64,000 bases of DNA from Actinomycetota bacterium (GCA_017856385.1 JAFMFD010000009.1:10-64009); one strand, 5' to 3'; positions 9,077 to 61,284 are shown, counted from the stretch's first letter. The notes: generated from the sequence alone by a model not told the origin. Made by a program: numbers and translations.

Positions 9077-9229
9077 AGCGGGGGGAGCCCTGGCGGCGCC
9101 CCTAGGTCAACAACGGGTAACAAATCCCCAAGGTGATTGCCTATCGCCCTCTCAGGTGTGAAGATGCGTATGCCGTCCGTCTGGCGGTCGCAAATTCGGG
9201 GTGATGCCCCGATCGACTAGGGAGGTTGC

Positions 9230-19674: not shown

Positions 19675-19764
19675 CGCAGCCTCGCCCGCTCACGTCCCGA
19701 TTACCCGGGTGAGCCTACTGCCCGGCCTGAGCGGGTGCTACGGTCCGACCGTCGAAAGCGAGCC

Positions 19765-41151: not shown

Positions 41152-42101
41152 CGGAACCGCTCTCGCAGCAGGGTGGTCGACGGCTTCTCGCCGAAGCGGG
41201 CGCGGTACTGCACGGAGAAGCGGCCAAGGTGCGTGAAGCCGCAGTCGTAGGCGACCGCTGCCACGGTGGTCGTGCGGGATTCGGCGGCGCGCAGGCGATG
41301 GTGGGCATCCATGAGCCGAACGTCGCGCAGCAGTTGCGAGGGGGTCATGCCGAGCTCGTCATGGACGATCTGCTGGAGCTGCCTCAGGCTCAGGCCGACA
41401 CCACGGGCGATGTCGGTGGTCGTCACGTCGAGACCGTGGTTGCAGCGCACCCAGTCGAGGATGTGCGCTGCCCGTCCGCGTGCGGTGGGCACGTTCCGCG
41501 TGGGCGACCAGGCCAGCACGAGCGCGCTCATGAGCATGTCGTCGAGGGCGTGCGCGAGCGAGGCGACGACGGCAGCGGGCGTCTCGGCTGGCAGCGTGGT
41601 GGTCACGGTCCAGATCTGCCGGCACGCGCGTTCGATCGCGCGGGGTGCGGCGAGTGCCTGTGGATCCGGGTCGATGACGTGCTCGGGACCGAGCACGTCA
41701 GTGGCATGCGCGGCGATGCGGATCGGGTCGCTCGAGACGACGAGCGCTCCTGCGAGCGGATCGGGGTCCATCAGCGTGCTGCACTCCTGGCCCAGGACGA
41801 CCGTCGCGGTGTCGCGCGAGCCGGGCCTGCGGTCGCCGTAGCGCACACCCATGGGGCCGAGCGGCACCGTCGCCACGATCCGGTCGCCGGTGGGCGGCGC
41901 CTCGACCTCCACCTGCCCGCCGTACTTCACGAACACCATGCGCGACTCGGGCAGGGCCAGCACCCCGACCGTCCCGTCGAGTCCGTCGGTGCGGGGTGTC
42001 ACCTCATGGGGTGTGGTGTAGGCAGCGACCTCGTCGCGCAGGGTGCCTCGCTGCCGGGTGTGCACCCAGGACCAGACGGGTGAGTCCACGCTGCCGCGCA
42101 T
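41148..42101 (-). CDS. AraC family transcriptional regulator
   Basis: C-terminal double HTH: [41 protein letters not shown]...[29 protein letters not shown]. Confidence 0.85.
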
Positions 42102-42191
42102 GCCCTCACTCTAGTGCAGTTTCGACGATCGCCACCAAGGTGTCAGACGTCGGTGGGTACGATCGAACAGTCCGATGTGAAGGGAGTCCTC

Positions 42192-42605
42192 GTGGAGTCA
42201 CGGGTCAGGATTGTGGTCGCCAAGCCGGGGCTCGACGGCCACGACCGGGGTGCCAAGGTCATCGCCCGGACGCTGCGTGACGCGGGCTTCGAGGTCGTCT
42301 ACACCGGCCTGCGGCAGACACCGGCCCAGATCGTCGAGGCAGCACTCCAGGAGGACGCCGACCTCATCGGACTGTCGATCCTCTCCGGCGCCCACATGAC
42401 CCTCTTCGCGGAGGTGCTCGACCTCCTGCGGGAGCGCGATGCGAGCGACATTGTGGTCTTCGGGGGAGGCATCATCCCCGACGACGACATCCCGCGGCTG
42501 CTCGACATGGGGGTCGCCGCGATCTTCACCCCCGGCACGCCCACGCAGGACGTGGTGGCGTGGGTGCAGGAGCAGGCCGCGGTGTCAGCCGCCCGGCGCA
42601 CGTAG
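42192..42605 (+). CDS. cobalamin-binding small subunit of acyl-CoA mutase (B12-binding domain protein)
   Basis: GTG 42192 after [37 protein letters not shown] (DxHxxG), GLSILSG (SxL), VVFGGGIIP (GG). Confidence 0.85.
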
Positions 42606-42660: not shown

Positions 42661-42731
42661 CGTTCAGGGCACGGTGGCCCGAGCGCGCCTAGCGTCCGAA
42701 CTGCCCGTCCAGTCCGTCCAAGGAGCAGATC

Positions 42732-43652
42732 ATGCGCACAATCCCCAGCGTCCGCCAAGCCGCAGCTGTCGGCGCCGCCCTCGCCCTCGTCTCCGGGGTG
42801 AGTGCCACCGGCGCCCAGGCTGCCGAGCTCGTCAACATCCCGGCCATCTCCACGGCGTCCTGGCAGCAGACGGACAAGACGGGAGTTGCCGTCTACGAGT
42901 CGACCAGGCGCGACGTGTACGCACGGGGCTTCTCCACGTCCACCCCACCGACCTCGGTCGAGACCACGACGACGCGCCTGGTCTCGAGAGCCGGAGCCAC
43001 CTCGTTCAGCCGTGAGGTGCGTGACGGATCCTCCCTCGGGACCGGTCGTGACTTCGCATCGCTGCGCCTTGTCGAGGCGCAGGGCGTCAAGGCCGGCGCG
43101 GTCTCCCTCCGCAACCCGACACCGGGGCCATGGCTCACCGCCAACCTCGCCCGCGCTGCCGTGCGCGGCACGCTCCAGGCGTCCTCGATCCCCGCCAGCA
43201 TCCCGGCGACGACAGCCATCACCGGGGTCACCGCGGGCGCGCTGGTCTCGGCGGCCCGCACGTGGCGGGGAGTCCCCATGGTCGAGTTGGTGCGCAACAG
43301 CGTCAAGGTGCTGCCGGAACTCGAGCCGTCCGATGGCATGGTCACGGTGGGACCTGCCGGCTCCCCCTCGCCCGGTTACCTCGCCGGCACGACCCAGTAC
43401 TCATGGACCAAGGCGGCCATCACGCGGCTCAACGGTGACCAGTGCCGCAGCGGTGAGTTCTATCTGCAGGTGAACGACCAGGGCTTGGTGACGGCGTTCC
43501 TCGGCAAGATGACCTGCAAGGACAAGTCGAGCAAGTCCGGTGCCGAGTACCGATGGACGTACGAGCAGCGGGTCTCGTCCTACAACGTCAAGGATGCCGA
43601 CGTGCCCGGGCCCACGACTCCGTCGGTCGCTGCGTCGAGCCTGCGCAGGTAG
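42732..43652 (+). CDS. hypothetical secreted protein
   Basis: MRTIPSVRQAAAVGAALALVSGVSATGAQA signal peptide. AAGGAG SD. No recognisable catalytic motif. Confidence 0.65.
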   Translation: MRTIPSVRQAAAVGAALALVSGVSATGAQAAELVNIPAISTASWQQTDKTGVAVYESTRRDVYARGFSTSTPPTSVETTTTRLVSRAGATSFSREVRDGSSLGTGRDFASLRLVEAQGVKAGAVSLRNPTPGPWLTANLARAAVRGTLQASSIPASIPATTAITGVTAGALVSAARTWRGVPMVELVRNSVKVLPELEPSDGMVTVGPAGSPSPGYLAGTTQYSWTKAAITRLNGDQCRSGEFYLQVNDQGLVTAFLGKMTCKDKSSKSGAEYRWTYEQRVSSYNVKDADVPGPTTPSVAASSLRR

Positions 43653-43667
43653 TTCGGATCGGTCGCC

Positions 43668-44675
43668 TCAGTGCGACAGATCGTGCCGCTGCACCTTGCC
43701 GAGGATGAGCCCCTCGCGGAGCGCGTATGCCGCGGCAGCGGCTCGGTTGGGGGCTTGGATCTTGTCGAGGATGTGTTCGACATGGGTCGCCACGGTGCGA
43801 TGCGAGACCACGAGGGCCTCGCTGATCTCGTTGTTCGAAAGGCCCTCTGCGGCCAGCGTGAGCACCTCCAGCTCGCGGTGGGTCAGGGGGCCGAGGTCGA
43901 TCGAGTCCAGGCTCACCAGGGTGGTGACCGAGGCCTCGGCCGTGCACGGCAGCACCCGGACCCGGAAGAACTCGGTGTCGCCCGGCCACACGAAGGACGA
44001 CCAGGACTTCATCCGCGCGGACTTCCGGGCCACGTTCATCAGTTCTGCGTCCTCGTGGAGCAGGTCGTGCTTGGGCACCCCCGGCAGCGCGATGGCGCGG
44101 CCATGGGCGTCCAGGCCCACGGCCATCGCCGTGGACCCCAGGAGTGAGGTGACCCAGCCCCGTGAGCGCAGGGGGTCGGCCATATTGCCGAGCGCGGTGC
44201 AGAGCTGGGTCAGAACGTCCTTGGCAAGGTCGCTGGGGTGCTGCGGATCGGTCGTCGACAGGTTGATGACACCGACGAACCTGCCGTCGGACGTCCGAAG
44301 GCTCATGGTCAGGCCCTCGCGGTACCCGGCGGGCAGCAGCACGTCCGAGACGGCCCAGTTGTCGAGGGGGTCCCCAGGCAGGTCCTTCATCCGGGTGGCT
44401 CGCCCCGTCTCCGGCAGGTCGAGGAACTCCATGAGCTGGAAGAACTCCGCGCTGTGCAGGTCGTCCAGCACCTGGGGGGAATAGCCGTGCGTGGCCAGCA
44501 TCATGGGATCCCCGGTGAAGGGGTCCAGGGCGATGATCTCGGCCGCCTCGAGGGGGATGAGGGACTTGAGCTCCGCGAGGACGGCCGCGGCCCGGTCCTG
44601 GGGGGAGGCGTGGTCGGAGGCGATGGCCGCAAGTGAACCGGCTGCGCGCATGCCAACAGAGAGGTCGGTCGCCAC
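43668..44675 (-). CDS. LuxR-family transcriptional regulator with N-terminal GAF-like sensor domain
   Basis: C-terminal LTHRELEVLTLAAEGLSNNEISEALVVSHRTVATHVEHILDKIQAPNRAAAAAYA (GerE/LuxR HTH). The N-terminal ~250 aa have a GAF-like pattern. Start uncertain (GTG 44675 or ATG 44651); no obvious SD. Confidence 0.8.
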   Translation of the reverse strand: MATDLSVGMRAAGSLAAIASDHASPQDRAAAVLAELKSLIPLEAAEIIALDPFTGDPMMLATHGYSPQVLDDLHSAEFFQLMEFLDLPETGRATRMKDLPGDPLDNWAVSDVLLPAGYREGLTMSLRTSDGRFVGVINLSTTDPQHPSDLAKDVLTQLCTALGNMADPLRSRGWVTSLLGSTAMAVGLDAHGRAIALPGVPKHDLLHEDAELMNVARKSARMKSWSSFVWPGDTEFFRVRVLPCTAEASVTTLVSLDSIDLGPLTHRELEVLTLAAEGLSNNEISEALVVSHRTVATHVEHILDKIQAPNRAAAAAYALREGLILGKVQRHDLSH

Positions 44676-44735
44676 GGGGGAAGACTGTCAGCCGGGGCAG
44701 CCCTTCGGGCACGAATGACCCGTTCTTTATCAATC

Positions 44736-44766
44736 AGAGATCAAAGATCGGCAGATCGACCGATAG
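44736..44766. promoter_or_regulatory. three direct AGATC(R) repeats at 7-8 bp spacing in the AT-rich core of the LuxR/ABC divergent region
   Basis: agAGATCAaAGATCGgcAGATCGaccGATAgg read directly. GATC at 44739, 44746 and 44754. Locally the most AT-rich part of the 161-bp intergenic region. Confidence 0.4.
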
Positions 44767-44836
44767 GCCCTCTGCCGGGGAACTGGTGGGGTGAGCCCAC
44801 CGGGCGGACTGCGCCCTGATCTGTCATGGAGGCCAC

Positions 44837-46216
44837 ATGAAGCGAACTCGACTCATGGCTGCCGCCGCTTCCGTAGCGGTGCTGTCCGTGGTCCTGAGTG
44901 CCTGCAGCTCCTCTGATTCCGGGGACGCCGCAAGCCCGGCAGCGGAGGAACCCGCCGCCGCCGAGGAACCCGCCGCGGAGGAGCCCGCCGCGGCGGAGCC
45001 TGCTGCCGAGGAGGCCGCCCCGGCCGAGGCCAGCGGCGAGCCCATCACGATCGGCCTGCCGATCGCCCAGTCCGGTCCGGCCGGCATCGCCGATCATGCC
45101 GACTGCCTGAACGGCGCGACCCTCGCGAAGGACCAGATCAATGGTGCGGGCGGTGTCAACGGGCGCCCGATCGAGTTCAGCGTCACCGACCTGGACATCC
45201 TCACGCCCGAGGGCATCACGGCCGGCTTCCAGAAGCTGACCGGCGAGGGTGTTGCTGCCCTCGTCAGCCCCTTCGTGATCATCCCTCCGGCCGCCCTTGA
45301 GGTGGCTGCCACGTACGGCGCGCCGTACATGAGCGGTGACACCAACGTGGACGTGCAGGTCATGCGCGCCTCGGATCCTGCCAAGTACGGCAACTACTTC
45401 GTCGATCCGCCGGAGACGTACTACGGCTCCGGATTCGTCACCTTCCTCACCAACCTTGCTGACTCGGGCTCGTGGACGCCGAAGAACAACAAGGTCGACA
45501 TCATCCGCGGCGACACGGCCTACAACCAGAACATCGCCGCTGCCACCGTCGAGGCCATCGAGGCATCGGGCGGCAAGTGGGAGCTCGGTGAGATCATCGA
45601 CATCACGGCCGGTACGAAGGACTGGTCGCCCGTGCTGCAGAAGCTGGCCGCCAACGATCCCGGTGTGATCATGGTCGATCACTGGATCGGCGCCGAGCTC
45701 GCGTCGTTCTCGCAGCAGTTCGCTGCGGATCCGGTCCCCGGCTCGCTGGTCTACCTCCAGTACGGCCCGTCCCAGCCGGAGTACCTCGACATCGCGGGTG
45801 ACTCCGCGGAGGGCTTCGTGTGGGGCACCGTGATCGGCACCGGCAACACCAGCGCCGAGGACAAGGCCTTCCGCGAGGCCTACCACGCAGCAACGGGCAC
45901 GGACGATGTCACGATGGGCATGGTCTACCCCGCCTGGTGCTACGACATGGTCAACGTGCTTGCTCAGGCGTGGGCCAACACCGATCCTGCGGATTTCGCG
46001 GCGGTCAACCAGTACATCGCATCCACCCCGTACCAGGGCGTGACGGGCTACATCGACTTCGCGAATGGGGTCACCCCCAGCTACCCGAACGATGTCGCCA
46101 GCGCGGCCGAGGGTGTGACGCACTACTTCTACCAGGTTCAGGATGGTCGCCACACGGTCATTGAGCCTGCGGATGATGCCGAGGCACCATTCACCCCGGC
46201 ACCGTGGATGCAGTAG
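44837..46216 (+). CDS. ABC transporter substrate-binding lipoprotein, type-1 PBP (Liv/amide-urea binding family)
   Basis: Lipobox VLSAC, A/E/P acidic linker, ITIGLPIAQSGPAGIADHADCLNGATLAKDQINGAGGVNGRPIEF. GGAGG SD. Confidence 0.85.
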   Translation: MKRTRLMAAAASVAVLSVVLSACSSSDSGDAASPAAEEPAAAEEPAAEEPAAAEPAAEEAAPAEASGEPITIGLPIAQSGPAGIADHADCLNGATLAKDQINGAGGVNGRPIEFSVTDLDILTPEGITAGFQKLTGEGVAALVSPFVIIPPAALEVAATYGAPYMSGDTNVDVQVMRASDPAKYGNYFVDPPETYYGSGFVTFLTNLADSGSWTPKNNKVDIIRGDTAYNQNIAAATVEAIEASGGKWELGEIIDITAGTKDWSPVLQKLAANDPGVIMVDHWIGAELASFSQQFAADPVPGSLVYLQYGPSQPEYLDIAGDSAEGFVWGTVIGTGNTSAEDKAFREAYHAATGTDDVTMGMVYPAWCYDMVNVLAQAWANTDPADFAAVNQYIASTPYQGVTGYIDFANGVTPSYPNDVASAAEGVTHYFYQVQDGRHTVIEPADDAEAPFTPAPWMQ

Positions 46217-46236
46217 GCATCCGGTAGGAGCACTGA

Positions 46237-46968
46237 ATGGCACTGCTGTCCTGCTCGGAGATCACCCTTGATCTCGGCGGTCGCCGCATCCTCGAGGGTG
46301 TGTCTCTCGAGGTGGAGCAGGCGGAGGTTGTAGGTCTTGCCGGCCCCAATGGGGCCGGCAAGACCAGCCTCTTCGAGGTCCTCTCCGGGCGCCAGCTGCG
46401 ACACGGTGGGGACGTCGTCTTCGACGGCGAGTCCGTCGCGAAGCTGCCGATGCGCGAGCGGGTCCAGCGGGGGCTGGTCCGCAGCTACCAGCGCCCGATC
46501 GTCCCCGCAGGCCTGACGGTCGGTGAGACGCTCAATGCGGCGCGCAAGGCCTACAGGGCCTATCCGTCCCGGCTCAAGGTGGAGTGGGCGACGGAGTTCG
46601 TCCACATGCGCGTGCCGCTCGACCAGCCCACCGGCTCACTGGAGACCCTCGAGCGGCGCAAGCTGATGCTGGCCTGCCTGCTACTTCGCTCGCCGCGGAT
46701 CGTCCTGCTCGACGAGCCCGCCTCGGGGCTGACCGGGTCGGAGATCGACGAGATCGACCTGATCGTTCGCCGACTGTCCCAGGAGTACGGCATGGCGGTG
46801 CTGCTCATCGAGCACCGGCTCGAGCTGCTTGCGATGGTCGCCTCACGCGTTCTCGTCCTCGATGTGGGCCGGGTCATCGCGGAGGGGCATCCCGAGCGCG
46901 TCTTCCGCGAGCCCGACGTCCGGGCTGCCTACTTCGACGTGCCCATCACCGGGGACGTGGTGGCCTGA
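46237..46968 (+). CDS. ABC transporter ATP-binding protein (LivG-like)
   Basis: GPNGAGKTS Walker A, LLDEPASGL Walker B. Confidence 0.85.
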   Translation: MALLSCSEITLDLGGRRILEGVSLEVEQAEVVGLAGPNGAGKTSLFEVLSGRQLRHGGDVVFDGESVAKLPMRERVQRGLVRSYQRPIVPAGLTVGETLNAARKAYRAYPSRLKVEWATEFVHMRVPLDQPTGSLETLERRKLMLACLLLRSPRIVLLDEPASGLTGSEIDEIDLIVRRLSQEYGMAVLLIEHRLELLAMVASRVLVLDVGRVIAEGHPERVFREPDVRAAYFDVPITGDVVA

Positions 46969-47690
46969 TGGCGATCCTCCAGATCGAGGGACTGTCGGCC
47001 GGTTACGGCCCGGTGCGCGTCCTGCACGACCTCAACCTCACCGTCAACCCGGGCGAGCGACTCGGCCTCGTCGGGCTCAACGGGCACGGCAAGACCACGT
47101 TCCTCAGCGCCATCGTCGGCCTGACCGGCTGGCAGGACGGGTCGATCCTGTTCCGTGGTGAGCAGATCGGCGGTCGGCGCACGCACGGTATGGGACGCAA
47201 GACCCCGCACATCGTGCGGCAGGGGATCGCCCTCGCCCCGCAGGGCGATGCGATCTTCCCCGGACTGTCGGTCAAGGACAACATCGACGCGGGGGCCTAC
47301 TCCGGAGCCACGTGGCGGTCACGCCGCAAGCGTCGGGAGCGGATCCTCGAGGTGTTCCCCCCGCTGGCGCCCCTGCTGCGGCAGACCGCGGGCACGCTCT
47401 CCGGAGGCGAGCGGCGGATGGTCAGCGTGGGCCGGGCGCTGATGTCCGACGCCTCGCTGTACCTGGTCGATGAGCCGTCGCTGGGCCTGGCCCCGAAGAT
47501 CTCTCTCGGCCTCGTGGCCGCCCTGTGCGAGATCGACCTCGGTGATGGAGCCATGATCATCGCGGAGCAGAACCTGCCGTTGATCGAGGGCCGAGTCGAC
47601 CGCGTTCTCGGCATGCATGCGGGGGAACTCAAGCTCGATGTCGGTGAGGCTCTGGGCGACGTCCCTCCCGCAGCGGAGGTGCATCTGTGA
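46968..47690 (+). CDS. ABC transporter ATP-binding protein (LivF-like)
   Basis: ATG 46968 shares one nt with the preceding TGA. GLNGHGKTT, LSGGERRMVSVGRAL, LVDEPSLGL. Confidence 0.85.
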   Translation: MAILQIEGLSAGYGPVRVLHDLNLTVNPGERLGLVGLNGHGKTTFLSAIVGLTGWQDGSILFRGEQIGGRRTHGMGRKTPHIVRQGIALAPQGDAIFPGLSVKDNIDAGAYSGATWRSRRKRRERILEVFPPLAPLLRQTAGTLSGGERRMVSVGRALMSDASLYLVDEPSLGLAPKISLGLVAALCEIDLGDGAMIIAEQNLPLIEGRVDRVLGMHAGELKLDVGEALGDVPPAAEVHL

Positions 47691-48580
47691 TCGAGGTCCT
47701 GATCAGTGCTCTGGTGCTCGCGTCCATATACGGCCTCGTGGCCATCGGCATCTCCTTCACATGGGCAAGCATCGGCATGCTCAACCTCGCGCAGGGCTTC
47801 ATCTTCACCGCGGGCGGCTACACCGCCTGGCTCTACGCGCAGTACGCCGAGGGCTGGGGCCTGGAAGGTGCGGTCCTTTCGGTCGGGGTCCTCGTGTTCG
47901 GGATGCTCGGCTCGGCGCTGGCAGGGCTCTTCGTCGGGGCCATTGCCTTCCTGCCCCTGCAGGACCGCGACAACTTCCGCACGCGCAGCCTGATCGCGAC
48001 GCTGGCGATCTCGCTCGTCGGCACCCAGGTGTGGCTGATCCTCTTCGGCCCGCAGAACAAGCCCCTGCCACCCGTCTTCGGCGAGGGGCGACTCGAGATC
48101 GGCTCGGCCGGGATCTCCTACCAGCAGGTCGGCACGATCATCGTGGCCTCGCTGATGCTCGCCCTCGTCATCCTGTGGATGCGCAGCAGCCGGCGTGGGC
48201 TCCAGATGCGCGCGATGATGATGAACCCGCTGGGCGCTGCGGTCGTCGGCGTGTCCGTGCGGAGTACGGGCATGCGGGTGCTCGCCATCAGCGGTGCGCT
48301 CACCGGACTGTCGTCGGTTCTGCTCGCCCAGGTCTTCTTCGTCAGCCCCACCTCCGGCGTCCAGCCCTTGACCACCGGCCTGATCATCTCGCTCGCGGGT
48401 GGCCTTGGCTCGATCCCGGGAACGGTCATCGCGGCAGGCGTGATCGGCCTGGCTGAGGCGCTCACGGCCCGGTACCTCCAGCAGTCGCTGGTGCCCTTCG
48501 TGCTCTTCGCGATCGTCGTCGTGATCCTCATCTTCCGGCCACGCGGCCTCGGTGGCCTGCTGGAGGACGTCCGTGAGTAA
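47687..48580 (+). CDS. ABC permease (LivH-like)
   Basis: 297-aa polytopic protein. NLAQGFIFTAGGY motif. GTGA overlap with the ATPase gene. Confidence 0.85.
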   Translation: MIEVLISALVLASIYGLVAIGISFTWASIGMLNLAQGFIFTAGGYTAWLYAQYAEGWGLEGAVLSVGVLVFGMLGSALAGLFVGAIAFLPLQDRDNFRTRSLIATLAISLVGTQVWLILFGPQNKPLPPVFGEGRLEIGSAGISYQQVGTIIVASLMLALVILWMRSSRRGLQMRAMMMNPLGAAVVGVSVRSTGMRVLAISGALTGLSSVLLAQVFFVSPTSGVQPLTTGLIISLAGGLGSIPGTVIAAGVIGLAEALTARYLQQSLVPFVLFAIVVVILIFRPRGLGGLLEDVRE

Positions 48581-50099
48581 CAGTCCACGCCTTGTCGGGC
48601 GCCGCGCCTACCGACCGCACTGGCCGGTCAACTCCGCACGGGTGTTCAAGCGCCGCAGGTGGCCCGGCACGAAGCGATCTGTCCTCAAGCTCTCCGGCCG
48701 GTACAACCCCAAGACCCTGCGCCGCGAGATGGTGCTCACCGACAAGAAGCCGATGTTCTGGTCGGTCGGCCTCGCGGCCCTCCTGCTGCTGCCGATGGGA
48801 GTGGCGTCGGAGCGCTTCTTCACGATGTTCGGGATCATCTGCATCTACGCGGCCATCAACGTGATGTGGACCCTGATCATCGGCACGGCGGGCCTGCAGT
48901 CCTTCGCCACGCTGGCCACCGTCGGCGTGGGTGCCTACGGCGCCGGCTACCTGAGCGTGACGTATGGCCTGCCCTGGCCCTTCATGCTCCTCGTCGGAGC
49001 GGTGCTCGGCGGACTCCTCGGCTGGATCATCTCGCTGCCTGCGCGACGCCTTGATGGCCTCTACTACGCACTCCTCACGCTCGGACTGTCCGAGTTCATG
49101 CGCAACTTCGTCACACAGTCCGACGAGCTCGGTGGAAAGTTCAATGGAGCGCTGTTCGGCGTGGGAAGGATCATCCCTGCGGACCTGCTGACGTCTCGCC
49201 TGGGGCAGTCACTGCTCTACCTCACCGCCTTCATTGCGCTGCTGATCGCGCTTGTCGTGTACCGCTGGGTCAATGGGGGACGCACCGGGCTCCTCCTCCG
49301 GGCTGCAGCGACCTCCAAGGAGGACGAGGCGTTCTCGTCGGCCCTGGGCATCGACTTCAACAAGGAGCGGACGCGCGTCTTCATCATCGCCTCGGCCGTC
49401 CTGGGATTCCTGGGGGCGTTCTACGCCACGTACATCGGCGGCACGTCGCTGCAGATCTTCAGTCTCGAGCTGCTGCTCCTCCTGCTCGCGATGATCGTGA
49501 TCGGCGGGCTCGGGCGGGCTGAGGGGGCCGTCGTCGGCACGGTCATCGTGGTCGGGATCACCCAGTGGTTCACCGACTGGGGACCTTGGCGCATCGTGCT
49601 GGTGGGCGTCCTGGCCCTGGCCTCCGTGCTCTTCACCCGCAACGGCCTGTTCGGGCTCAAGGCCCAGATTGAGGAGATCCGGGACAGGCGCAAGGCGCTC
49701 CACCGGGCGGGCATCACGAGCAGATTTGCGGAGTACCTTCCTCAGCAGGCGCCCGAGGTGCACGACAAATCCGAGATCGTCGGTCGGGTGTTCGAGCGGT
49801 CCCTGCGCGAGCGGCTGCGCTCGTGGATCAGTCCTGAACTGCTGGCGGAGCACGAGGCCAAGCCGCTCGGCCAGCACTCCGACCGGCTCGAGCGGATGCT
49901 CAACTACTTCCGCAAGGCACCTATCCCCGACAAGTACGTGGTGTACTGCGAGGTCCCGTTCGAGTCGTACCGCGTGGTGGCGCTCAGCGGCCTTCCTGGT
50001 GTGCCGCCGCGCATCGTCGACGACAAGAAGTACGCGACCCTGGACGAGGCCTACCACGCCGTCTTCCTGCGCCGCGTCAACGATCTCAGAGCAAACTGA
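48573..50099 (+). CDS. ABC permease (LivM-like) with ~145-aa hydrophilic C-terminal extension
   Basis: TM core from ...MFWSVGLAALLLLPMGV to ...LASVLFTRNGLFGLK. A charged soluble tail follows (IEEIRDRRKALHRAG...YVVYCEVPFESYRVVALSGLPGVPPRIVDDKKYATLDEAYHAVFLRRVNDLRAN) in the same frame with no intervening stop. Start GTG 48573 is provisional. Confidence 0.75.
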   Translation: MSNSPRLVGRRAYRPHWPVNSARVFKRRRWPGTKRSVLKLSGRYNPKTLRREMVLTDKKPMFWSVGLAALLLLPMGVASERFFTMFGIICIYAAINVMWTLIIGTAGLQSFATLATVGVGAYGAGYLSVTYGLPWPFMLLVGAVLGGLLGWIISLPARRLDGLYYALLTLGLSEFMRNFVTQSDELGGKFNGALFGVGRIIPADLLTSRLGQSLLYLTAFIALLIALVVYRWVNGGRTGLLLRAAATSKEDEAFSSALGIDFNKERTRVFIIASAVLGFLGAFYATYIGGTSLQIFSLELLLLLLAMIVIGGLGRAEGAVVGTVIVVGITQWFTDWGPWRIVLVGVLALASVLFTRNGLFGLKAQIEEIRDRRKALHRAGITSRFAEYLPQQAPEVHDKSEIVGRVFERSLRERLRSWISPELLAEHEAKPLGQHSDRLERMLNYFRKAPIPDKYVVYCEVPFESYRVVALSGLPGVPPRIVDDKKYATLDEAYHAVFLRRVNDLRAN

Positions 50100-50114
50100 G
50101 CGATCGGAGAGACA

Positions 50115-52412
50115 ATGGCCAAGATCGCCCTCACCGGGTACACCGACAAGATCAGTGTGGCTCCTGGTGAATCCATCGACGTCAAGGTGAGCGCCGACAA
50201 TGCCACGACGGCGCACGTCGAGATCGTGCGCCTGATCCACGGTGACGAGCACCCGGACGGCCCCGGATTCCTCGAGGAGCTCGTCGTCGCTGACTGCGCT
50301 GGCGACCACGCCGTACGCAAGCAGTTCGTGGACGTGGGCAACGCGGTCGTCGTGGCGGATCCGTCGAACCGGCTCGTCGGCGACGGCCCCATGACCCTGT
50401 GGGCCTATGTCTTCCCCACGACTCCGGCCAAGGGCAGGCAGGTGATCCTCGGGCGCTTCGCGCTCCAGGAGAACGCCGGGTACGCCCTGGGCATCGACGG
50501 CCAGGGCCGGCTGGCCTTCTGGGCCGGGGACGGCTCGGACACCGACGAGGTCGTCTCGCCGGTCCCGCTGATCCACCACACGTGGTACCTCGTCGCGGCC
50601 TCCTTCGACCCTCGGTCGGGTCAGGCGGCGCTGCTCCAGCAGGCGGTGGTGAACCCGTACAACGGGCGCCTGGGCAAGGTTGCGCCGTTCGACCACTACT
50701 CGCTCGTTGAGCAGAAGCTGCGGATCAGGCCCGCGGCACCCTCGTCACCGTTCATGTGGGGTGCAGCACAGAACTCCGCGCCTGTGCGCGGGGTGTTCAA
50801 GGAGTTCCTCTACAACGGCAAGATCGATCGGGCCGGCGTGATCGGTGCAGCCCTGACGGTGGACGACCTGCGACGACTCGCGGACGGTGCCGTCACTGCC
50901 CCGGAGATCGCCCGATGGGACACGACGGCGGGGTACGGCGAGTCCGGAATCGACGACGTCGTGCGTGATATCTCGGGCAATGGCCTGGACGGTGTCGGCA
51001 TCCAGCGGCCGGTCCGCGCGATGACGGGCTACAACTGGAGCGGCAGGCATGACGACTGGCGGGTGGCGCCCGAGGAGTACGGAGGCATCGCCTTCCACGA
51101 CGACGCGGTCATCGACTGTGAGTGGGATACGACGTTCACGTGGCAGGTACCGGTGGGCACGCGCAGCGGTGCCTATGCGGCTCGGGTGACTGCGGGGGAT
51201 GCCGAGGACCACATCCCCTTCTTCGTCCGCCCCGCCGCGCCGACGGCTCCGATCCTGTACCTGATGCCCACGAACTCCTATCTCGCCTACGCGAACGAGA
51301 TGATCGTCCACCACGTGCCGGTGGGGCAGGCGATCCTGTCGCACCCGGCGGTGCTCACCGAGGCCGAGGCGGACTACTACCAGGATCCGCGCTTCGGGCG
51401 GTCCACGTACGACCACCACTCCGACGGCGCGGGCGTGTGCTTCACGTCATGGAATCGGCCGATCCTGAACATGCGGCCCAAATGGCGCTCCTCAGCCATC
51501 GGCACCGTGTGGCAGTTCCCGCGGGACCTCTCGCTCATCGCCTGGCTGGAGAAGAAGGGCTACGCCTACGACGTGGCCACCGACCACGACCTCTCGCGCG
51601 ACGGGATCGACCTGCTGAAGTCCTACTCAGTGGTGCTCACCGGCTCGCACCCGGAGTACTGGAGCGAGGGAAGCCTGAACGCCCTGGAGGACTACGTCGC
51701 CGACGGAGGCCGGCTGATGTACCTCGGCGGCAACGGCTTCTACTGGGTCATCTCCTACCGCGACGGGGAGCCGCAGGTCATGGAGGTGCGCAAGGGCGAG
51801 GCCGGCATGCGTGCATGGCAGGCCGAGCCGGGGGAGTACTACCACCAGACCTCGGCCGAGCGCGGTGGCATCTGGCGCAACCGCGCGCGTCCGCCCCAGA
51901 AGCTGACGGGGGTGGGCTTCACCACGCAGGGGTTCGACGAGTGCCATCCGTACCGGCGGATGCCCGACAGCTACCACAAGTCGGTGGCCTGGATCTTCGA
52001 CGGTGTTGAAGGAGAGGTCTTCGGTGACTTCGGCCTGGCCCTCGGGGGAGCGGCCGGACTGGAGACCGAGCGCTACGACCTCGAGCTGGGGACGCCTCCG
52101 CACACCAAACTGCTGGCGTCGTCGACGTCGTGGTCAGACAACTACGCCAGCGTCCACGAGGACATCCTCTTCAACCACCCGGGCACCCTGGGGACGCAGA
52201 GTCCCTCGGTGCGCGCCGACATGACCTACTTCACGACCGCGAATGATGGTGCGGCGTTCTCCACCGGATCGATCGCCTGGATCAGTGCACTGCCGTGCTT
52301 CGACTTCGAGAACAACTGCTCACGCATCATGTCCAACGTGCTCGACGCATTCATCAAGCCGGGCGCCCTGCCGGGTGGTGCGTGGGATCAGGACGAGAAG
52401 TCCTGGACATAG
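50115..52412 (+). CDS. N,N-dimethylformamidase beta (large) subunit family protein with N-terminal LamG/concanavalin-like domain
   Basis: GGAGAG SD. N-terminal LWAYVFPTTPAKGRQVILGRF...GYALGIDGQGRLAFW...HTWYLVAASFDP (LamG-like). C-terminal VVLTGSHPEYWSEGSLNALEDYVADGGRLMYLGGNGFYWVISY, which I recognise as the DMFase-large-subunit C-terminal domain signature. The call is from memory of the family, not a search. Confidence 0.65.
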   Translation: MAKIALTGYTDKISVAPGESIDVKVSADNATTAHVEIVRLIHGDEHPDGPGFLEELVVADCAGDHAVRKQFVDVGNAVVVADPSNRLVGDGPMTLWAYVFPTTPAKGRQVILGRFALQENAGYALGIDGQGRLAFWAGDGSDTDEVVSPVPLIHHTWYLVAASFDPRSGQAALLQQAVVNPYNGRLGKVAPFDHYSLVEQKLRIRPAAPSSPFMWGAAQNSAPVRGVFKEFLYNGKIDRAGVIGAALTVDDLRRLADGAVTAPEIARWDTTAGYGESGIDDVVRDISGNGLDGVGIQRPVRAMTGYNWSGRHDDWRVAPEEYGGIAFHDDAVIDCEWDTTFTWQVPVGTRSGAYAARVTAGDAEDHIPFFVRPAAPTAPILYLMPTNSYLAYANEMIVHHVPVGQAILSHPAVLTEAEADYYQDPRFGRSTYDHHSDGAGVCFTSWNRPILNMRPKWRSSAIGTVWQFPRDLSLIAWLEKKGYAYDVATDHDLSRDGIDLLKSYSVVLTGSHPEYWSEGSLNALEDYVADGGRLMYLGGNGFYWVISYRDGEPQVMEVRKGEAGMRAWQAEPGEYYHQTSAERGGIWRNRARPPQKLTGVGFTTQGFDECHPYRRMPDSYHKSVAWIFDGVEGEVFGDFGLALGGAAGLETERYDLELGTPPHTKLLASSTSWSDNYASVHEDILFNHPGTLGTQSPSVRADMTYFTTANDGAAFSTGSIAWISALPCFDFENNCSRIMSNVLDAFIKPGALPGGAWDQDEKSWT

Positions 52413-52421
52413 GGGGTGCAC

Positions 52422-53525
52422 ATGGCAACCGGATACGTCTGGCATGAGCTGTACGGCTGGCACGACACCAGTTCGCATGCTGGCCTGCTGCCCCCCAGTC
52501 TCGTCCTGCAGCCCTATCACCACTTCGAGTCGCCGGAGTCGAAGCAGCGCTTCCACTCCCTGCTCGAGGTCTGCGGACTGATCGACCATCTGACGCGCAT
52601 CCAGCCCAAGCAGGCCAGTGACGAGGACATCCTGCGGATCCACACCCCGGAGCACCTCGCGAGGATCAAGGCCGAGAGCGCGACCCTGAAGGGAGGCGAC
52701 GCCGGCGATGGCACCTCCCCCTTCGGACCCCAGGGCTTCGAGATCGCGGCGCTGGCCGCGGGGGGCGCGATCGCGGGACTGAACGCGGTGCTAGCGGGCG
52801 ACGTGACCAACGCCTACGCGCTCGTGCGCCCGCCGGGGCACCACGCCCGACCGGAGACGGGGATGGGCTTCTGCATCTTCGCCAATGCCGCGATTGCCAT
52901 CGCCCAGGCCAAGGCCGCGAACCCCGACCTGCGGGTAGCGACGGTCGACTGGGACGTCCACCACGGCAATGGCACGCAGGCCGCCTTCTACGACGACCCC
53001 ACCGTCCTGACGATCTCGCTGCACCAGGACGACCTGTTCCCGCGGAACAGCGGTGCCATCGAGGAGCGGGGGGAGGGTGAGGGACTCGGCTACGCCATCA
53101 ACATTCCCCTGCCCGCCGGCACCGGCAACGAGGGCTACGCCTACGCGATGCAGACCGTCGTGGTCCCGGCTCTTCGCAGGTTCTCCCCGGACGTCATCGT
53201 GGTTCCGTCGGGGTTTGATGCCAGCTGCTTCGATCCCCTCGGCCGGATGTCGGTCACCGCATCGGGCTACCGGGTCATGACGCGCCAGCTCATGGACGTG
53301 GCCGAGGAGGTGTGCTCTGGACGGATCATGATGACCCACGAGGGCGGCTACTCTCCGACCTACGTCCCGCTCTGCGGGGTCACCGTCCTCAGTGAGATGT
53401 CCGGAGTGCCCGTCGACGTGATCCACGAACTGTATGCGTCCTTCGACACCATGCCGGAGCAGACGCTCAACGACTACCAGCGGTCCGCGGTGGACCGCGC
53501 TGCGGCGGCTGTGTCCTTCGCATGA
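52422..53525 (+). CDS. class II histone-deacetylase-like Zn amidohydrolase (acetylpolyamine/acetoin-utilisation AcuC family)
   Basis: RPPGHHA (His-His dyad), DWDVHHGNGTQ (Asp/His Zn ligands), PSGFDAS (Asp ligand), HEGGYS (catalytic Tyr). All are intact. Confidence 0.85.
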   Translation: MATGYVWHELYGWHDTSSHAGLLPPSLVLQPYHHFESPESKQRFHSLLEVCGLIDHLTRIQPKQASDEDILRIHTPEHLARIKAESATLKGGDAGDGTSPFGPQGFEIAALAAGGAIAGLNAVLAGDVTNAYALVRPPGHHARPETGMGFCIFANAAIAIAQAKAANPDLRVATVDWDVHHGNGTQAAFYDDPTVLTISLHQDDLFPRNSGAIEERGEGEGLGYAINIPLPAGTGNEGYAYAMQTVVVPALRRFSPDVIVVPSGFDASCFDPLGRMSVTASGYRVMTRQLMDVAEEVCSGRIMMTHEGGYSPTYVPLCGVTVLSEMSGVPVDVIHELYASFDTMPEQTLNDYQRSAVDRAAAAVSFA

Positions 53526-55141
53526 CCACTTCACCGTCGACGCGGATCGAGAACGCGACCGTCTGGACGGGCCATCGCCTGCCCGACGGTCGTGTGGAGA
53601 CCACGGACGCCCTGCTCATGCGAGACGGCCGGGTGGTCGCGCTGGGCGCAGCCGCGCGGGCCATGGATGCCGACGAGGTCGTCGACGCGCACGGTGGCTT
53701 CGTCGCCCCGGCCTTCGGCGACGGCCATGTCCACCCGATCTTCGGCGGCCTCGAGCAGCAGTTCGCAGCGGTCCGAGAGGGCACGTCGGTGGAGGAGATC
53801 GCGGCTGCCGTCGGCCGGTGGGCCCACGAGCACCCGGATGCGGAGTGGATCCGCGGCGAGGGGTTCGACCCCACGCTGGCCCCGGGTGGGGTCTTCCGCG
53901 CCGAGTGGCTCGATGCTCAGGTGCCGGACCGGCCGGTGGTCCTGCGTGCCACCGACTACCACACCGTGTGGGTGAACTCCGAGGCTCTGCGCCGTTCGGG
54001 CTACGGCAGGGGAGTCGTCCAGCCGCATGACGGTGAGATCGTGCTCGACGACGACGGTGCGCCCAACGGCACGCTGCGGGAGTGGGGTGCGTGGCGGCCC
54101 GTGTACGCACTTCTTCCCGCCGTCCCGACGGAGCAGGTCGCGGCTGCGATCGACTTCGCGACGTCGTCCTTCGCCCAGGCAGGCCTGACGTGGATCCAGG
54201 ATGCGTGGGTGGAGTCAGCGGACGTCACCGCGTGGCTCGACGCTCTCGACGCCGGAGCGGTGCACGTCGATGTGGACCTCGCGCAGTGGGCGGACCCGAA
54301 CACCTGGCGTGACCAGCTGGCCGGCTTCGTGGATGCCCGCCGGCTCGTCGACGCGCGCGGAGGAGGCCGCATCACGGCGCACACCGTGAAGTTCTTCGCC
54401 GACGGCGTCATCGAGTCGGCGACGGGAGCGCTCATCGAGCCGTACTGCGACTGCCCCCACTCGCGCGGGATCCCCAACTGGGATCCGGAGGAGTTGAAGC
54501 TCGCCGTCGCCGCGGTCGACGCCCACGGCTTCACGCCCCACCTCCATGCCATCGGTGACCAGGCGATCCGCAATGCGCTCGACGCCATGGAGCATGCTGC
54601 CCGCGTCAATGGGCCCCGTGATCGCCGCTGGACCATCTGCCACGTGCAGCTCGTCGATCCCGCCGACATCCCACGCTTCGCCGAACTGGGTGTCATCGCC
54701 AACTTCGAGCCCTACTGGTCGAAGTTCGACTCCTGGCAGAGCGAGCTCAACACCGCTCGACTGGGCGAGGAGCGCCTCAACCGGCAGTTCCAGACCGCGA
54801 CACTCGCGCGGTCCGGAGCACGGATCTCCTTCGGCAGCGACTGGCCCGTGACGACCTACGCCCCGCTCGAGGGCATCCAGGTGGCCGTGACGCGCAAGGT
54901 GAGTCCGGACGAGCCGGCGTGGATGCCGGATGAGCGCATCAGCGTGGACGACGCCCTCGCCGCATACACGTCGGGCGTGGCCTTCCAGGCGGGTCGGGAT
55001 GACGCGGGTGTGCTGAGGCCGGGTGCGGTCGCTGACGTGGTCTGGCTGGGCGCGGACCCGCACACGGTGGATCCGATGCGGATCGGCGGAATCCAGGTAC
55101 TCGGCACCTGGCGCGCCGGCGAGCCGGTCTACCGGCGCTAG
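53522..55141 (+). CDS. amidohydrolase family protein (Amidohydro_3 / YtcJ-like metal-dependent hydrolase)
   Basis: GGFVAPAFGDGHVHPIFGG (HxH), ...HLHAIGDQA..., ...ICHVQL..., ...SFGSDWPV (Asp). ATGA overlap with the HDAC-like gene. Confidence 0.8.
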   Translation: MTTSPSTRIENATVWTGHRLPDGRVETTDALLMRDGRVVALGAAARAMDADEVVDAHGGFVAPAFGDGHVHPIFGGLEQQFAAVREGTSVEEIAAAVGRWAHEHPDAEWIRGEGFDPTLAPGGVFRAEWLDAQVPDRPVVLRATDYHTVWVNSEALRRSGYGRGVVQPHDGEIVLDDDGAPNGTLREWGAWRPVYALLPAVPTEQVAAAIDFATSSFAQAGLTWIQDAWVESADVTAWLDALDAGAVHVDVDLAQWADPNTWRDQLAGFVDARRLVDARGGGRITAHTVKFFADGVIESATGALIEPYCDCPHSRGIPNWDPEELKLAVAAVDAHGFTPHLHAIGDQAIRNALDAMEHAARVNGPRDRRWTICHVQLVDPADIPRFAELGVIANFEPYWSKFDSWQSELNTARLGEERLNRQFQTATLARSGARISFGSDWPVTTYAPLEGIQVAVTRKVSPDEPAWMPDERISVDDALAAYTSGVAFQAGRDDAGVLRPGAVADVVWLGADPHTVDPMRIGGIQVLGTWRAGEPVYRR

Positions 55142-56019
55142 GCCATGACCGCGGAGACCGCGCGCACGTGATCTGCGGTCGACCCGCAGCAGGCACCGAT
55201 CATGTCAATGCCGGCGTCGCGCATATCGGAAGCGAACTCCGCCATCTCCTCGGGGGTTCCGGTGTACACGAACTCGCCGCCCACCAACTGAGGCAGTCCG
55301 GCGTTGGACTGCACGAGGATGCGGATCCCGGTGGGTCGGGTCTCCAGCAGGCCGGCGGCGATGATGCGCATCTCGTCGACGCCGCGGCCGCAGTTGGCAC
55401 CCACGACGTCGGCACCCATGGCGGAGATCTGCTGGGCGGCGGACTGCGGGGTGACCCCCATCATCGTGCGCAGGTTGGTGTCGAAGGACATCGTCGCGAA
55501 GATCGGCAGGCCCGGCGCCGTCCGCTGCGCTGCGGTGATGGCGGCCTGCACCTCGGCAAGGTCGCTCATGGTCTCGATGAGGATTCCGTCGACCCCACCG
55601 TCGACGAGCCCGGCGATCTGCTCGCTGAACAGCGCGATGGCGTCATCCTCGGTCAGGGTCCCGAGCGGCGCCATGAGGTCACCGGACGGCCCGATGTCGC
55701 CGAGGACGAAGCATCCCTCGTAGCGGTCGGCGACCGCGCGTGCCACCCGCGCGCCGGCGGCATTGAGCTCGTGCACGCGGTCCTCGAGGCCATGCATGGC
55801 CAGGCGCGGGCGGGAACCGCCGAACGTGTTCGTGGTCAGCAAGTGTGCGCCGGCCGCCGCGTACTCCTCGAGCACCTGCGACACGACGTCAGGGCGGTCG
55901 ACATTCCACAGCTCGGGTGCACCACCGTCGTCCAGGCCCACCAGCTGGAGCCGCGTCCCCATGGATCCGTCGCCGACCCGGATGCGCCCCTCGTCCAGCG
56001 CCGCTCGCAGCGTGCTCAC
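55138..56019 (-). CDS. homocysteine S-methyltransferase-domain protein (stand-alone Zn thiol methyltransferase, MetH N-terminal module-like)
   Basis: GTG 56019 after GGAGGTG. DGSMGTRL...LLTTNTFG...ILIETMSDL...VGANCGRG (Cys) ...IGACCGST (Cys-Cys) gives a complete Zn site. 293 aa with no pterin or B12 modules. Confidence 0.8.
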   Translation of the reverse strand: MSTLRAALDEGRIRVGDGSMGTRLQLVGLDDGGAPELWNVDRPDVVSQVLEEYAAAGAHLLTTNTFGGSRPRLAMHGLEDRVHELNAAGARVARAVADRYEGCFVLGDIGPSGDLMAPLGTLTEDDAIALFSEQIAGLVDGGVDGILIETMSDLAEVQAAITAAQRTAPGLPIFATMSFDTNLRTMMGVTPQSAAQQISAMGADVVGANCGRGVDEMRIIAAGLLETRPTGIRILVQSNAGLPQLVGGEFVYTGTPEEMAEFASDMRDAGIDMIGACCGSTADHVRAVSAVMA

Positions 56020-56315
56020 CTGCCACCTCCGTAGTCGCTGACGTGCTCGTCGAGGCGCTCTTGGTCCCACTCGTCCTCCAGCGCCTGCGCCAGAGTAGCC
56101 GCGGCCTCGGCCGGGGTGCCCTCGGCGGCGACCCAGGGATCGCGGGCCCACCCGGCGAGGTAGGCATCGGCGTCGGTCTCGCCGGCACGCATCGCGGCCT
56201 CGTCGATGGCCTCCTGAAAGCGCGCGGGCAGGGGGATCTTGACCACCTCGTCACCGTCCCTGGCGGTGACCATCGAAGGGATGCCCTGCCATCGGGTCAG
56301 CTGGACCTCGGTCAT
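56016..56315 (-). CDS. small 'virulence factor'-family protein (conserved WQGIPS motif), function unknown
   Basis: MTEVQLTRWQGIPSMVTARDGDEVVKIPLPARFQEAIDEAA... 4-nt overlaps with both neighbours. Confidence 0.6.
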   Translation of the reverse strand: MTEVQLTRWQGIPSMVTARDGDEVVKIPLPARFQEAIDEAAMRAGETDADAYLAGWARDPWVAAEGTPAEAAATLAQALEDEWDQERLDEHVSDYGGGR

Positions 56316-56521
56316 GCTCGTCCCTCCATGATCGCGAGGGCCTCATGCACCTCGGCGGACAGTTCATCCTGGTGCTCATACGCGTACGCACGCAGGGCGG
56401 CGATCATCGACGGCGCCCAGAAGCTCGTCAGGTGGGCAGCGGTCTGCTGTGATGCATGCGCCCGATCGGGGACGTTGGCCGCGATCTGATTCGCCATGAC
56501 GACCATGCGCTCGGTCATCAT
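56312..56521 (-). CDS. fdsD: formate dehydrogenase subunit delta
   Basis: 69 aa. MVVMANQIAANVP...AAHLTSFWAPSMIAAL matches the FdsD pattern (VxMANQI...HLxxFWxPxM). ATGA coupled. Confidence 0.7.
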   Translation of the reverse strand: MMTERMVVMANQIAANVPDRAHASQQTAAHLTSFWAPSMIAALRAYAYEHQDELSAEVHEALAIMEGRA

Positions 56522-60868: not shown

Positions 60869-61284
60869 CGCCGGATCCTGTCCACGAGTGCCTGATTCGT
60901 CGCGCGGCCGACGAGCTCGCCGTTGATGACTGCGGCGGGGCCGAGCGCGCAGTTGCCCATGCAGTACACGTGCGTGACGTCGACCTCGGGACCCACCAGG
61001 GCCTCTGCCTCGTGCCGTAGCTCGCGGGCCCCCACGGCCTGGCAGGCCTCTCCCATGCAGATGCGCACCTCGACGGGGCTCGGCGGAGTCCGGCGCAGGT
61101 CGGAGTAGTAGGTCAGCACCCCGTACACATCGGCGCGGGACACTCCGCAGGCCTGGGCCACGGCAGTGAGCGAGGAGTCCGGCACGTACCCGAAGTGCTC
61201 CTGCAGCGCCTGCAGGGTCGGCAGGATCAGCAGGGGCGGGGTCAGCCCGGACAGGAGCGCCTCCACCGACGCGTCCGTGCTCAT
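60865..61284 (-). CDS. fdsG: formate dehydrogenase gamma subunit (NuoE-like 2Fe-2S)
   Basis: LQALQEHFGYVP...VYGVLTYYSDL...VRICMGEACQ...VYCMGNCALGPA. Confidence 0.85.
   Translation of the reverse strand: MSTDASVEALLSGLTPPLLILPTLQALQEHFGYVPDSSLTAVAQACGVSRADVYGVLTYYSDLRRTPPSPVEVRICMGEACQAVGARELRHEAEALVGPEVDVTHVYCMGNCALGPAAVINGELVGRATNQALVDRIRR

Follow-up and report, generated by a model that had tools for sequence, protein, structure and literature searches.

The closest described relative of the system reported here is the N,N-dimethylformamidase (DMFase, EC 3.5.1.56) of Paracoccus (DmfA1/DmfA2; 6LVB, 6LVV). Our system lies in a 64,000-nucleotide stretch of an uncultured actinobacterial metagenome-assembled genome (MAG) (GCA_017856385.1, JAFMFD010000009.1:10-64009; hereafter, the window) and brings both DMFase subunits together with a dedicated ATP-binding cassette (ABC) importer. 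In the Paracoccus enzyme, Y399, Y440, and E521 of the large subunit form a 2-Tyr-1-carboxylate Fe(III) site, and H519 and N547 are indispensable; on its own, the large subunit is inactive, and the small subunit co-forms the substrate entrance (PMC7686228). Its substrates are N,N-dimethylformamide (DMF), N-methylformamide, N-ethylformamide, and formamide, and it cleaves neither acetamide, dimethylacetamide, benzamide, hexanamide, nor urea. The dmfA1A2 genes are activated by DmfR in the presence of DMF (PMC4543880). Because DMF is regarded as man-made (Paracoccus DMFase preprint), the natural role of DMFase has been left unexplained. In addition, a survey found large-subunit genes in 952 genomes and small-subunit genes in just 41 (bioRxiv 10.1101/2021.03.18.435917).

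Compared with the Paracoccus system, the large subunit encoded in the window shares full-length homology with identical Fe ligands and catalytic residues, the small subunit has the same fold as DmfA1 at 33-38% identity, and the LuxR-type regulator shows end-to-end homology to DmfR. However, the small subunit is a free 15-kDa protein in Paracoccus and the C-terminal domain of an ABC permease here; pAMI2 is without an importer, whereas the enzyme in the window is preceded by a dedicated five-gene importer; and the Paracoccus host is a solvent-degrading isolate, whereas that of the window is an uncultured freshwater actinobacterium. The importers of the HAAT family include LivJHMGF for amino acids, UrtABCDE for urea, and FmdDEF for short-chain amides, and urea and short amides are among their known cargoes. 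The window importer has the same five-component make-up, to which its LivM-type permease adds a basic N-terminal extension and a C-terminal enzyme subunit. The parts (the DMFase subunits, DmfR, and a HAAT importer) are already known, whereas their arrangement is new to the papers searched, in which neither a fusion of DMFase with a permease nor a permease-borne subunit of a catalytic complex in the HAAT family was described. We interpret the locus as a DmfR-regulated, transporter-tethered DMFase system, with a probability of roughly 0.55. Its most likely function would be the high-affinity uptake of small N-alkylformamides and their hydrolysis at the cytoplasmic face of the transporter.

The small subunit is the C-terminal domain of a permease

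Genes were called in the window from an open reading frame (ORF) listing and from Pfam and NCBIfam scans. The ORF of the second permease of the importer (permease 2; positions 48573-50099, plus strand) encodes 508 amino acids with a BPD_transp_2 domain (E-value 4e-22) and extends approximately 130 residues past that domain. A sequence search against the PDB detected a DMFase small-subunit domain in this extension: the last 111 residues matched the Paracoccus small subunit 6lvb_B (phmmer, E-value 4e-14) and were 38% identical to DmfA1 of Paracoccus aminophilus pAMI2 (E-value 6e-21). The protein comprises an N-terminal part of residues 1-381 (48573-49715), with a basic extension, a LivM/UrtC-like membrane domain, and an exit helix; a flexible linker of residues 382-397 (49716-49763); and the small-subunit (alpha) domain of residues 398-508 (49764-50099), which corresponds to Pfam DMF_alpha (PF26354).

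An AlphaFold2 model of the whole fusion had a predicted local distance difference test (pLDDT) score of 80 and consisted of a membrane domain (helices 59-382, including the exit helix at 358-382), a disordered linker (382-397, pLDDT <50), and a well-predicted domain of helices and strands (398-507). The best structural matches in the PDB were 6lvv_B and 6lvb_B, with TM-scores of 0.81-0.82 (normalized to the target) over approximately the whole small subunit. The membrane domain had no match among PDB sequences, and in the model it weakly resembled type II importers. At the N-terminus, a basic extension of 55 amino acids (GRR...NPKTL.RE..DKKP) is kept across phyla, indicating that the GTG at 48573 is the true start of permease 2. 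No stop codon separates the permease from the small subunit, and the two share one reading frame.

A classical DMFase has a separate soluble small subunit of approximately 15 kDa, encoded beside the large subunit. Here, the two are also encoded side by side, the large-subunit gene starting at 50115 after a gap of 15 nt, but the small subunit is not separate. Both DMFase subunits are therefore encoded at the locus, with the importer carrying the small one as a covalently linked domain. An earlier account of the region, generated by a model from the DNA alone (hereafter, the sequence-only reading), had overlooked the small subunit; the locus does not lack one, since the subunit is fused to the LivM-type permease. 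That reading had presented the locus as an operon of three hydrolases, but its distinctive feature is the fusion of permease and small subunit, not the number of hydrolases. We infer that the small-subunit tail is cytoplasmic because its flanking residues are basic, the large subunit carries no signal peptide, and the membrane domain is like that of type II importers.

The large subunit resembles dimethylformamidase more than the related acylase

The large (beta) subunit homologue (50115-52412, plus strand; 765 amino acids) contains Laminin_G_3 and DMFA2_C domains (DMFA2_C E-value 3e-99), and aligns end to end with the Paracoccus large subunit 6lvb_A (residues 2-752 on 2-759, E-value 6e-203), in keeping with the classical DMFase large subunit of approximately 85 kDa. 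The earlier assignment of this gene to the DMFase family, with a LamG-like domain, was accordingly correct, and the idea of an uptake-plus-hydrolysis system centered on it was borne out. It shares 45% identity with both 6lvb_A and pAMI2 DmfA2. We aligned 75 large subunits: the window protein, 70 proteins from related loci, one from an Agrobacterium pAt plasmid, and, as three Paracoccus entries, 6lvb_A and two copies of the pAMI2 large subunit. The residues Y399, Y440, H519, E521, and N547 were invariant in this alignment, and the pocket-constricting F693 was F or Y throughout. The mononuclear Fe(III) site is thus intact, and the enzyme looks competent.

The sequence-only reading had held DMFases to be the only characterized members of the family. 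This does not stand, because the structure of another DMFA2_C member, the N-acetyl-(R)-beta-phenylalanine acylase 8huy, has been solved, and it aligns in full length (E-value 9e-115); the literature searched on this acylase contained nothing relevant. The acylase (8HUY/8I5A) is more distant from the window protein than DMFase is, and acts on a bulky N-acetyl amino acid. Its existence raises the alternative that the same architecture serves a different kind of small amide, for instance an N-acyl or N-formyl amino compound. The modest identity of the window protein to proven DMFases would allow this, as would the M20 peptidase, histone deacetylase (HDAC)-like, and other hydrolase genes that accompany the module in some lineages, and the closest solved relative of the substrate-binding protein (SBP), 3h5l, gives no ligand identity. 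However, the large subunit scored 680 bits against DMFase and 388 bits against the acylase, the residue at F693 is kept as F or Y, and the regulator is a homologue of DmfR, which responds to DMF. Furthermore, 8huy and 8i5a were matched through a large-subunit-like chain only, and no acylase chain matched the small-subunit query; sinks for formate and methylamine also adjoin some loci. We consider a different substrate rather improbable, but it is the strongest competitor of a formamide-directed system.

The importer and both subunits form a unit conserved across phyla

Relatives were collected by a scan with the tail domain, keeping one genome per species, which yielded 147. Synteny was counted in the best 80 of these 147, with the loci testable for each feature as the denominator and with Nanopelagicales-like and other loci treated separately. 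These 80 loci came from Nanopelagicales-like, Acidimicrobiales, and Gaiellales Actinomycetota and from Alpha-, Beta-, and Gammaproteobacteria. An in-frame fusion of permease and small subunit was present at 71 of 72 testable loci (38/38 Nanopelagicales-like and 33/34 other), and the large-subunit gene came next after the fusion gene at 64 of 65 (29/30 and 35/35, respectively). The remaining importer genes were nearly always present: the SBP was present at 22/23 Nanopelagicales-like and 31/32 other loci, ATPase 1 at 23/23 and 33/33, ATPase 2 at 28/28 and 33/33, and permease 1 at 33/33 in both groups. No second copy of the small- or large-subunit gene occurred within 10 kb in 85 loci. Among the best 120 homologues of permease 2 (50-99% identity), all were covered in full and carried both PF02653 and PF26354 in precomputed annotation. 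Agrobacterium pAt plasmids had the same module layout. The conserved unit is the importer plus the small and large subunits. Conservation of the neighborhood in related genomes, which had been set as a check beforehand, was thus found, whereas the description of the system as actinobacterial was too narrow, given its occurrence in three classes of Proteobacteria and on the pAt plasmids.

The sole unfused exception was on the chromosome of Bradyrhizobium betae P42 (L075:8844-10378), where a permease of 388 amino acids and a small subunit of 123 amino acids with a GTG start overlap by 4 nt, the break lying inside the linker; either a frameshift or a natural split could account for this separation. 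Outside the module, the small subunit is commonly free: the DMF_alpha proteins without a permease, in the set found with the small-subunit domain of the window, are approximately 115-135 amino acids long, and the nearest of them (P0139) is on a 504-bp contig. When the family was clustered at 50% identity, the fused proteins fell into very few clusters and the free small subunits filled most of the 304, which makes the fusion one fairly tight clade in a much more diverse family of free small subunits. Because this free diversity far exceeds 41 genomes, the small-subunit model of the published survey was probably too strict. Meanwhile, a metagenomic protein of 891 amino acids (P0189) joins a small subunit (residues 16-123) and a large subunit (149-889, 37% identical to that of the window) on one chain, which supports the view that the two subunits are physical partners.

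These data bear on whether the fusion provides genetic or expression linkage only, with the small subunit being freed by proteolysis or internal initiation to form a cytosolic alpha2beta2 enzyme. Such a release would fit the predicted disorder of residues 382-397, the split version in B. betae with its separate GTG-started ORF, and the free state that is common in the wider family. However, the in-frame fusion has been maintained at all but one of the testable loci, although their sequences have diverged by over 50% and belong to several phyla, and a covalent link that is always cut is not expected to be kept by selection. In addition, the linker lacks a start codon that is conserved; the single GTG-encoded Val of the window is Ile in most homologues. 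We regard mere linkage as unlikely, and less probable than a difference in substrate.

Importer components and their substrate families

The four other importer genes are all on the plus strand. They encode a lipoprotein SBP of the Peripla_BP_6 family (44837-46216; E-value 9e-28, with an LSAC lipobox), the LivG/UrtD-like ABC ATPase 1 (46237-46968; ABC_tran and BCA_ABC_TP_C), the LivF/UrtE-like ABC ATPase 2 (46968-47690; ABC_tran E-value 1e-26, beginning MAILQIEG), and the LivH/UrtB-like permease 1 (47687-48580; BPD_transp_2 E-value 8e-29). Genes overlap at 46968 (1 nt), 47687-47690, and 48573-48580, and, further downstream, at 53522-53525 (ATGA). All coordinates and junctions of the sequence-only reading agreed with the ORF listing, and Pfam upheld its domain calls for the SBP, the ATPases, the permeases, and the three hydrolases.

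With one operon encoding a Peripla_BP_6 SBP, two BPD_transp_2 permeases, and two ABC ATPases, the importer has the make-up of the HAAT family, and the fused permeases appear in databases under the name "branched-chain amino acid ABC transporter permease," although Pfam annotation shows both domains. Database names and Pfam families alike would suit an ordinary branched-chain amino acid transporter that stands beside hydrolase genes by chance. Nevertheless, every component missed the Liv and Urt equivalog cut-offs of NCBIfam, those of Liv by a wide margin (score/cut-off: UrtB, 124/250; LivG, 141/362; UrtA, 19/493; LivM, 64/366); the matches of ATPase 2 to UrtE and LivF were below cut-off, as were those of the SBP to Liv and UrtA. 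Since, moreover, the permease bears an enzyme subunit and its linkage to the large subunit is near-invariant, we give this explanation hardly any credence. The best solved relative of the SBP, 3h5l, is an uncharacterized paralogue, and is approximately 40% identical even to a Rhodobacterales SBP from a dmf locus.

Other importers of this type were also present. The window contains a second Liv-type ABC set (Peripla_BP_6 SBP at 9221-10519, permease at approximately 12972-13688), listed together with a CN_hydrolase gene (19465-20787); these may constitute another amide or nitrile uptake system. At a proteobacterial locus on a 4.45-Mb contig (L005:1-6161), a second Liv/Urt-type ABC operon stands beside the DMF module and ends with a gene for a 787-amino-acid product combining an ABC ATPase and an amidase signature (PF00005 and PF01425). 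In this product, too, an amide hydrolase is joined to a part of an importer. The two operons of this locus are separated by a flotillin gene, recalling the flotillin/rhodopsin clusters reported with "dimethylformamidase" (PMC10308929).

A DmfR-type regulator and a candidate operator

The regulator gene (43668-44675, minus strand) is divergent from the operon and encodes a GerE/LuxR helix-turn-helix (HTH) at residues 263-318 (Pfam GerE E-value 9e-18). The protein was 27% identical to pAMI2 DmfR over 325 of 335 amino acids (E-value 2e-23), i.e., over its full length, which supports the proposal that the operon is controlled by a LuxR-type regulator. It had also been read as a GAF protein. Whereas the HTH part of that call was confirmed, the GAF part was below threshold by sequence (GAF_2 E-value 0.002; 18.8 bits, with gathering cut-offs of 22.4 and 28.6 for the two GAF families) and drew its support from the fold: the AlphaFold2 model (pLDDT 92.7) showed a GAF-like domain, a second small alpha/beta domain, and the HTH, and its Foldseek matches included LuxR-type receptors, phytochrome GAF domains, and the GAF structure 3k2n (TM-score 0.68, normalized to the target). 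Some homologues of the regulator carry PF13185.

A regulator of this type was divergent upstream of the module at 19/19 Nanopelagicales-like and 5/30 other loci. The GerE regulators beside the proteobacterial modules resemble the window regulator and DmfR in the HTH alone, suggesting that orthology of the regulator is limited to the actinobacterial loci and Paracoccus. The same position is occupied by a LysR gene in Rhodopseudomonas loci and by an AraC gene in Betaproteobacteria.

Between the regulator and SBP genes, an 18-bp palindrome, ATCGGCAGATCGACCGAT, at 44747-44764 is a candidate operator of the regulator. It was kept in the aligned intergenic regions of related loci (L002, L008-L010, L014, L015, L018, L020, L021, and L026), the version in L018 being perfect, and the site is unique in the 64-kb window, in which 0.12 matches would be expected by chance; being palindromic, it scores on both strands. 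A terminator-like hairpin that a simple scan placed at 44747-44764 was rejected, as it is identical to the palindrome. Otherwise, the promoter/terminator scan gave nothing above chance, and an Rfam scan of 43000-56600 found no RNA family at the gathering score. On the other side of the regulator, a 319-amino-acid ORF with a coding-like third-position GC content (GC3) of 0.88 and no Pfam match (42693-43652, plus strand) sits between the regulator and a B12-binding-domain gene (42084-42605).

Accessory hydrolases are restricted in distribution

Two further hydrolase genes follow the large subunit on the plus strand. The first, after a spacing of 3 nt, encodes an HDAC-like Zn amidohydrolase of the histone deacetylase-like amidohydrolase (HDAH) class (52416-53525, Hist_deacetyl E-value 1e-87), which probably starts at the ATG at 52422. 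Its best solved relative is the HDAH 1zz0 (E-value 1e-108), and it is also close to the propanil hydrolase 9gku and the dimethoate hydrolase 9gkw (HDAH-class matches, E-values from 1e-95 to 1e-108). The motifs PPGHHA, DWDVHHGNG, SGFDAS, and EGGYS align with 1zz0, and we take their residues to have the roles that they have in the HDAH structure, namely those of a catalytic His-His pair, Asp-His-Asp Zn ligands, and a catalytic Tyr. The literature searched on HDAC-like pesticide hydrolases and on dimethylacetamide hydrolases was uninformative. The alignment of the GHH, DxH, D, and GGY motifs agrees with the earlier description of an intact active site. Like the known members of this class (FB188 HDAH 1ZZ0, PA3774, 9GKU, and 9GKW), the window protein matches in full length, with Zn and catalytic motifs aligned; the natural substrate of the class is not known, and the window gene differs in being tied to a DMFase operon, in one actinobacterial lineage only. 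The second gene encodes a YtcJ-like metallo-amidohydrolase (53522-55141, Amidohydro_3 E-value 9e-89), whose HxH, K, H, H, and D motifs for a binuclear metal site align with 3icj, in line with the previous HxH amidohydrolase assignment. Its homologues are named "predicted amidohydrolase YtcJ" only. The N-substituted formamide deformylase NfdA of Arthrobacter pascens is among the reaction types of the Amidohydro_3 family (PMC13081988); it shares the Amidohydro_3/YtcJ-like family with the window enzyme, whose linkage to the operon is local.

The HDAC-like gene directly followed the large subunit at 24/25 Nanopelagicales-like loci and at none of 34 other loci, and is lineage-specific. The Amidohydro_3 gene followed the HDAC-like gene at 5/22 Nanopelagicales-like and 0/33 other loci. 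The notion of a "triple hydrolase" unit is therefore not upheld. In a Nanopelagicales MAG whose small subunit is 87% identical to that of the window (L014), the convergent formate dehydrogenase operon lies approximately 3 kb past the large-subunit gene, and the stretch in between gave no match to an HDAC-like or Amidohydro_3 gene; this arrangement suggests that the two genes are an insertion in the sub-lineage of the window.

It could be supposed that the three unrelated hydrolases act jointly on one complex imported N-substituted amide, as their tight coupling in the window (a 3-nt gap, then an ATGA overlap) and the stability of the HDAC-like gene in the Nanopelagicales-like lineage would suggest. 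This is very unlikely, however: all 34 distant loci that lack the HDAC-like gene keep the importer and both subunits, few of the close loci have the Amidohydro_3 gene, and enzymes of that family occur widely in Nanopelagicales in other genomic settings.

Formate and methylamine context

The convergent neighboring operon (55138-63748, minus strand; assigned from Pfam matches), which lies outside the module, encodes an S-methyltransferase, the alpha, beta, and gamma subunits of an NAD-type formate dehydrogenase, FdhD, and a formate-tetrahydrofolate (THF) ligase. The stop codons of the Amidohydro_3 and S-methyltransferase genes overlap by 4 nt (55138-55141), leaving no room for a terminator between the operons. 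The sequence-only reading took the formate dehydrogenase and formate-THF ligase as a sink for released formate. These neighbors are indeed present, but they make a weak argument, since formate dehydrogenase occurred within 10 kb at only 1/17 Nanopelagicales-like and 1/25 other loci. Formate dehydrogenase and formate-THF ligase also adjoin the module in L014, and formate dehydrogenase recurs independently in the Rhodopseudomonas loci L001 and L058, being downstream in Rhodopseudomonas.

In Microbaculum marinum (L090:1-4826), the module is immediately preceded by GATase, GXGXG, Glu_synthase, Gln-synt_C, and DAO genes, of which the first three resemble N-methylglutamate synthase. Together, these neighbors lend weak contextual support to formate and methylamine as products. 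The upstream half of the window, with CoA-ligase, thiolase, mutase, and amine-oxidase genes, contained no methylamine pathway. Small formamides and acetamides are common atmospheric amides, with both natural and man-made sources (PMC5297639).

Proposed mechanism and implications

In the mechanism that we propose, the lipoprotein SBP would capture a small neutral N-alkylformamide, and the importer would hand the amide over at the cytoplasmic face. There, a large-subunit dimer would sit on the permease-borne small subunit, and the amide would be hydrolyzed at the importer exit to formate and methylamine or dimethylamine, so that a membrane-permeant solute is trapped as charged products. The GAF-like/LuxR regulator may sense the amide and activate the operon from the 18-bp palindrome. 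The HDAC-like enzyme (in its lineage) and the YtcJ-like enzyme (in this genome) probably extend the range to amides that are not DMFase substrates, e.g., N-methylated acetamides; that the accessory hydrolases cover amides that DMFase cannot cleave is speculation.

Chemistry coupled to transport is known from group translocation by the phosphotransferase system (PTS) and from vectorial acylation by FadL and FadD. The window system would follow the same principle, a solute being chemically trapped on entry, but would differ from these in its covalent tether between a permease and a hydrolase subunit and in a chemistry that presumably proceeds without energy coupling. Tethering would help because such amides cross membranes freely and would leak before a soluble enzyme could act on them.

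Several points weigh against the interpretation of the locus as a transporter-tethered DMFase system. With regard to the substrate, the identity to proven DMFases is just 45%, membership in a family that includes the acylase does not fix the substrate, formate dehydrogenase rarely adjoins the module, and the link to methylamine use through the N-methylglutamate pathway comes from a single genome. With regard to the tether, the cytoplasmic placement of the tail is itself inferred, and the linker, which is predicted to be disordered, could be cleaved after translation. Because B. betae has separate overlapping ORFs, tethering may also be non-essential. Furthermore, an importer would have one LivM-type permease, whereas the Paracoccus DMFase is alpha2beta2, and this stoichiometry is not readily matched.

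A stricter form of the transporter-tethered model is that the large-subunit dimer assembles only on its own importer, via the permease-borne small subunit, forming a transport-hydrolysis machine that traps neutral, membrane-permeant formamides as formate and methylammonium. We offer this tentatively, and consider it clearly less probable than the model in its general form. If it is true, the conservation of the module in abundant freshwater Nanopelagicales-like actinobacteria, marine Rhodobacterales, and soil rhizobia would point to a natural and widespread flux of N-methylformamide- or DMF-type amides, which would account for the age and broad distribution of an enzyme supposed to be xenobiotic.

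The fusion also locates one set of the "missing" DMFase small subunits, joined to the permease of a dedicated high-affinity importer, and corrects a systematic misannotation of these proteins as branched-chain amino acid permeases. That several phyla, abundant planktonic lineages among them, have maintained this arrangement speaks for a small formamide as the natural substrate. The module furthermore provides a tractable example in which an enzyme is physically connected to an ABC importer, which bears on how leaky small neutral solutes may be retained by the cell.

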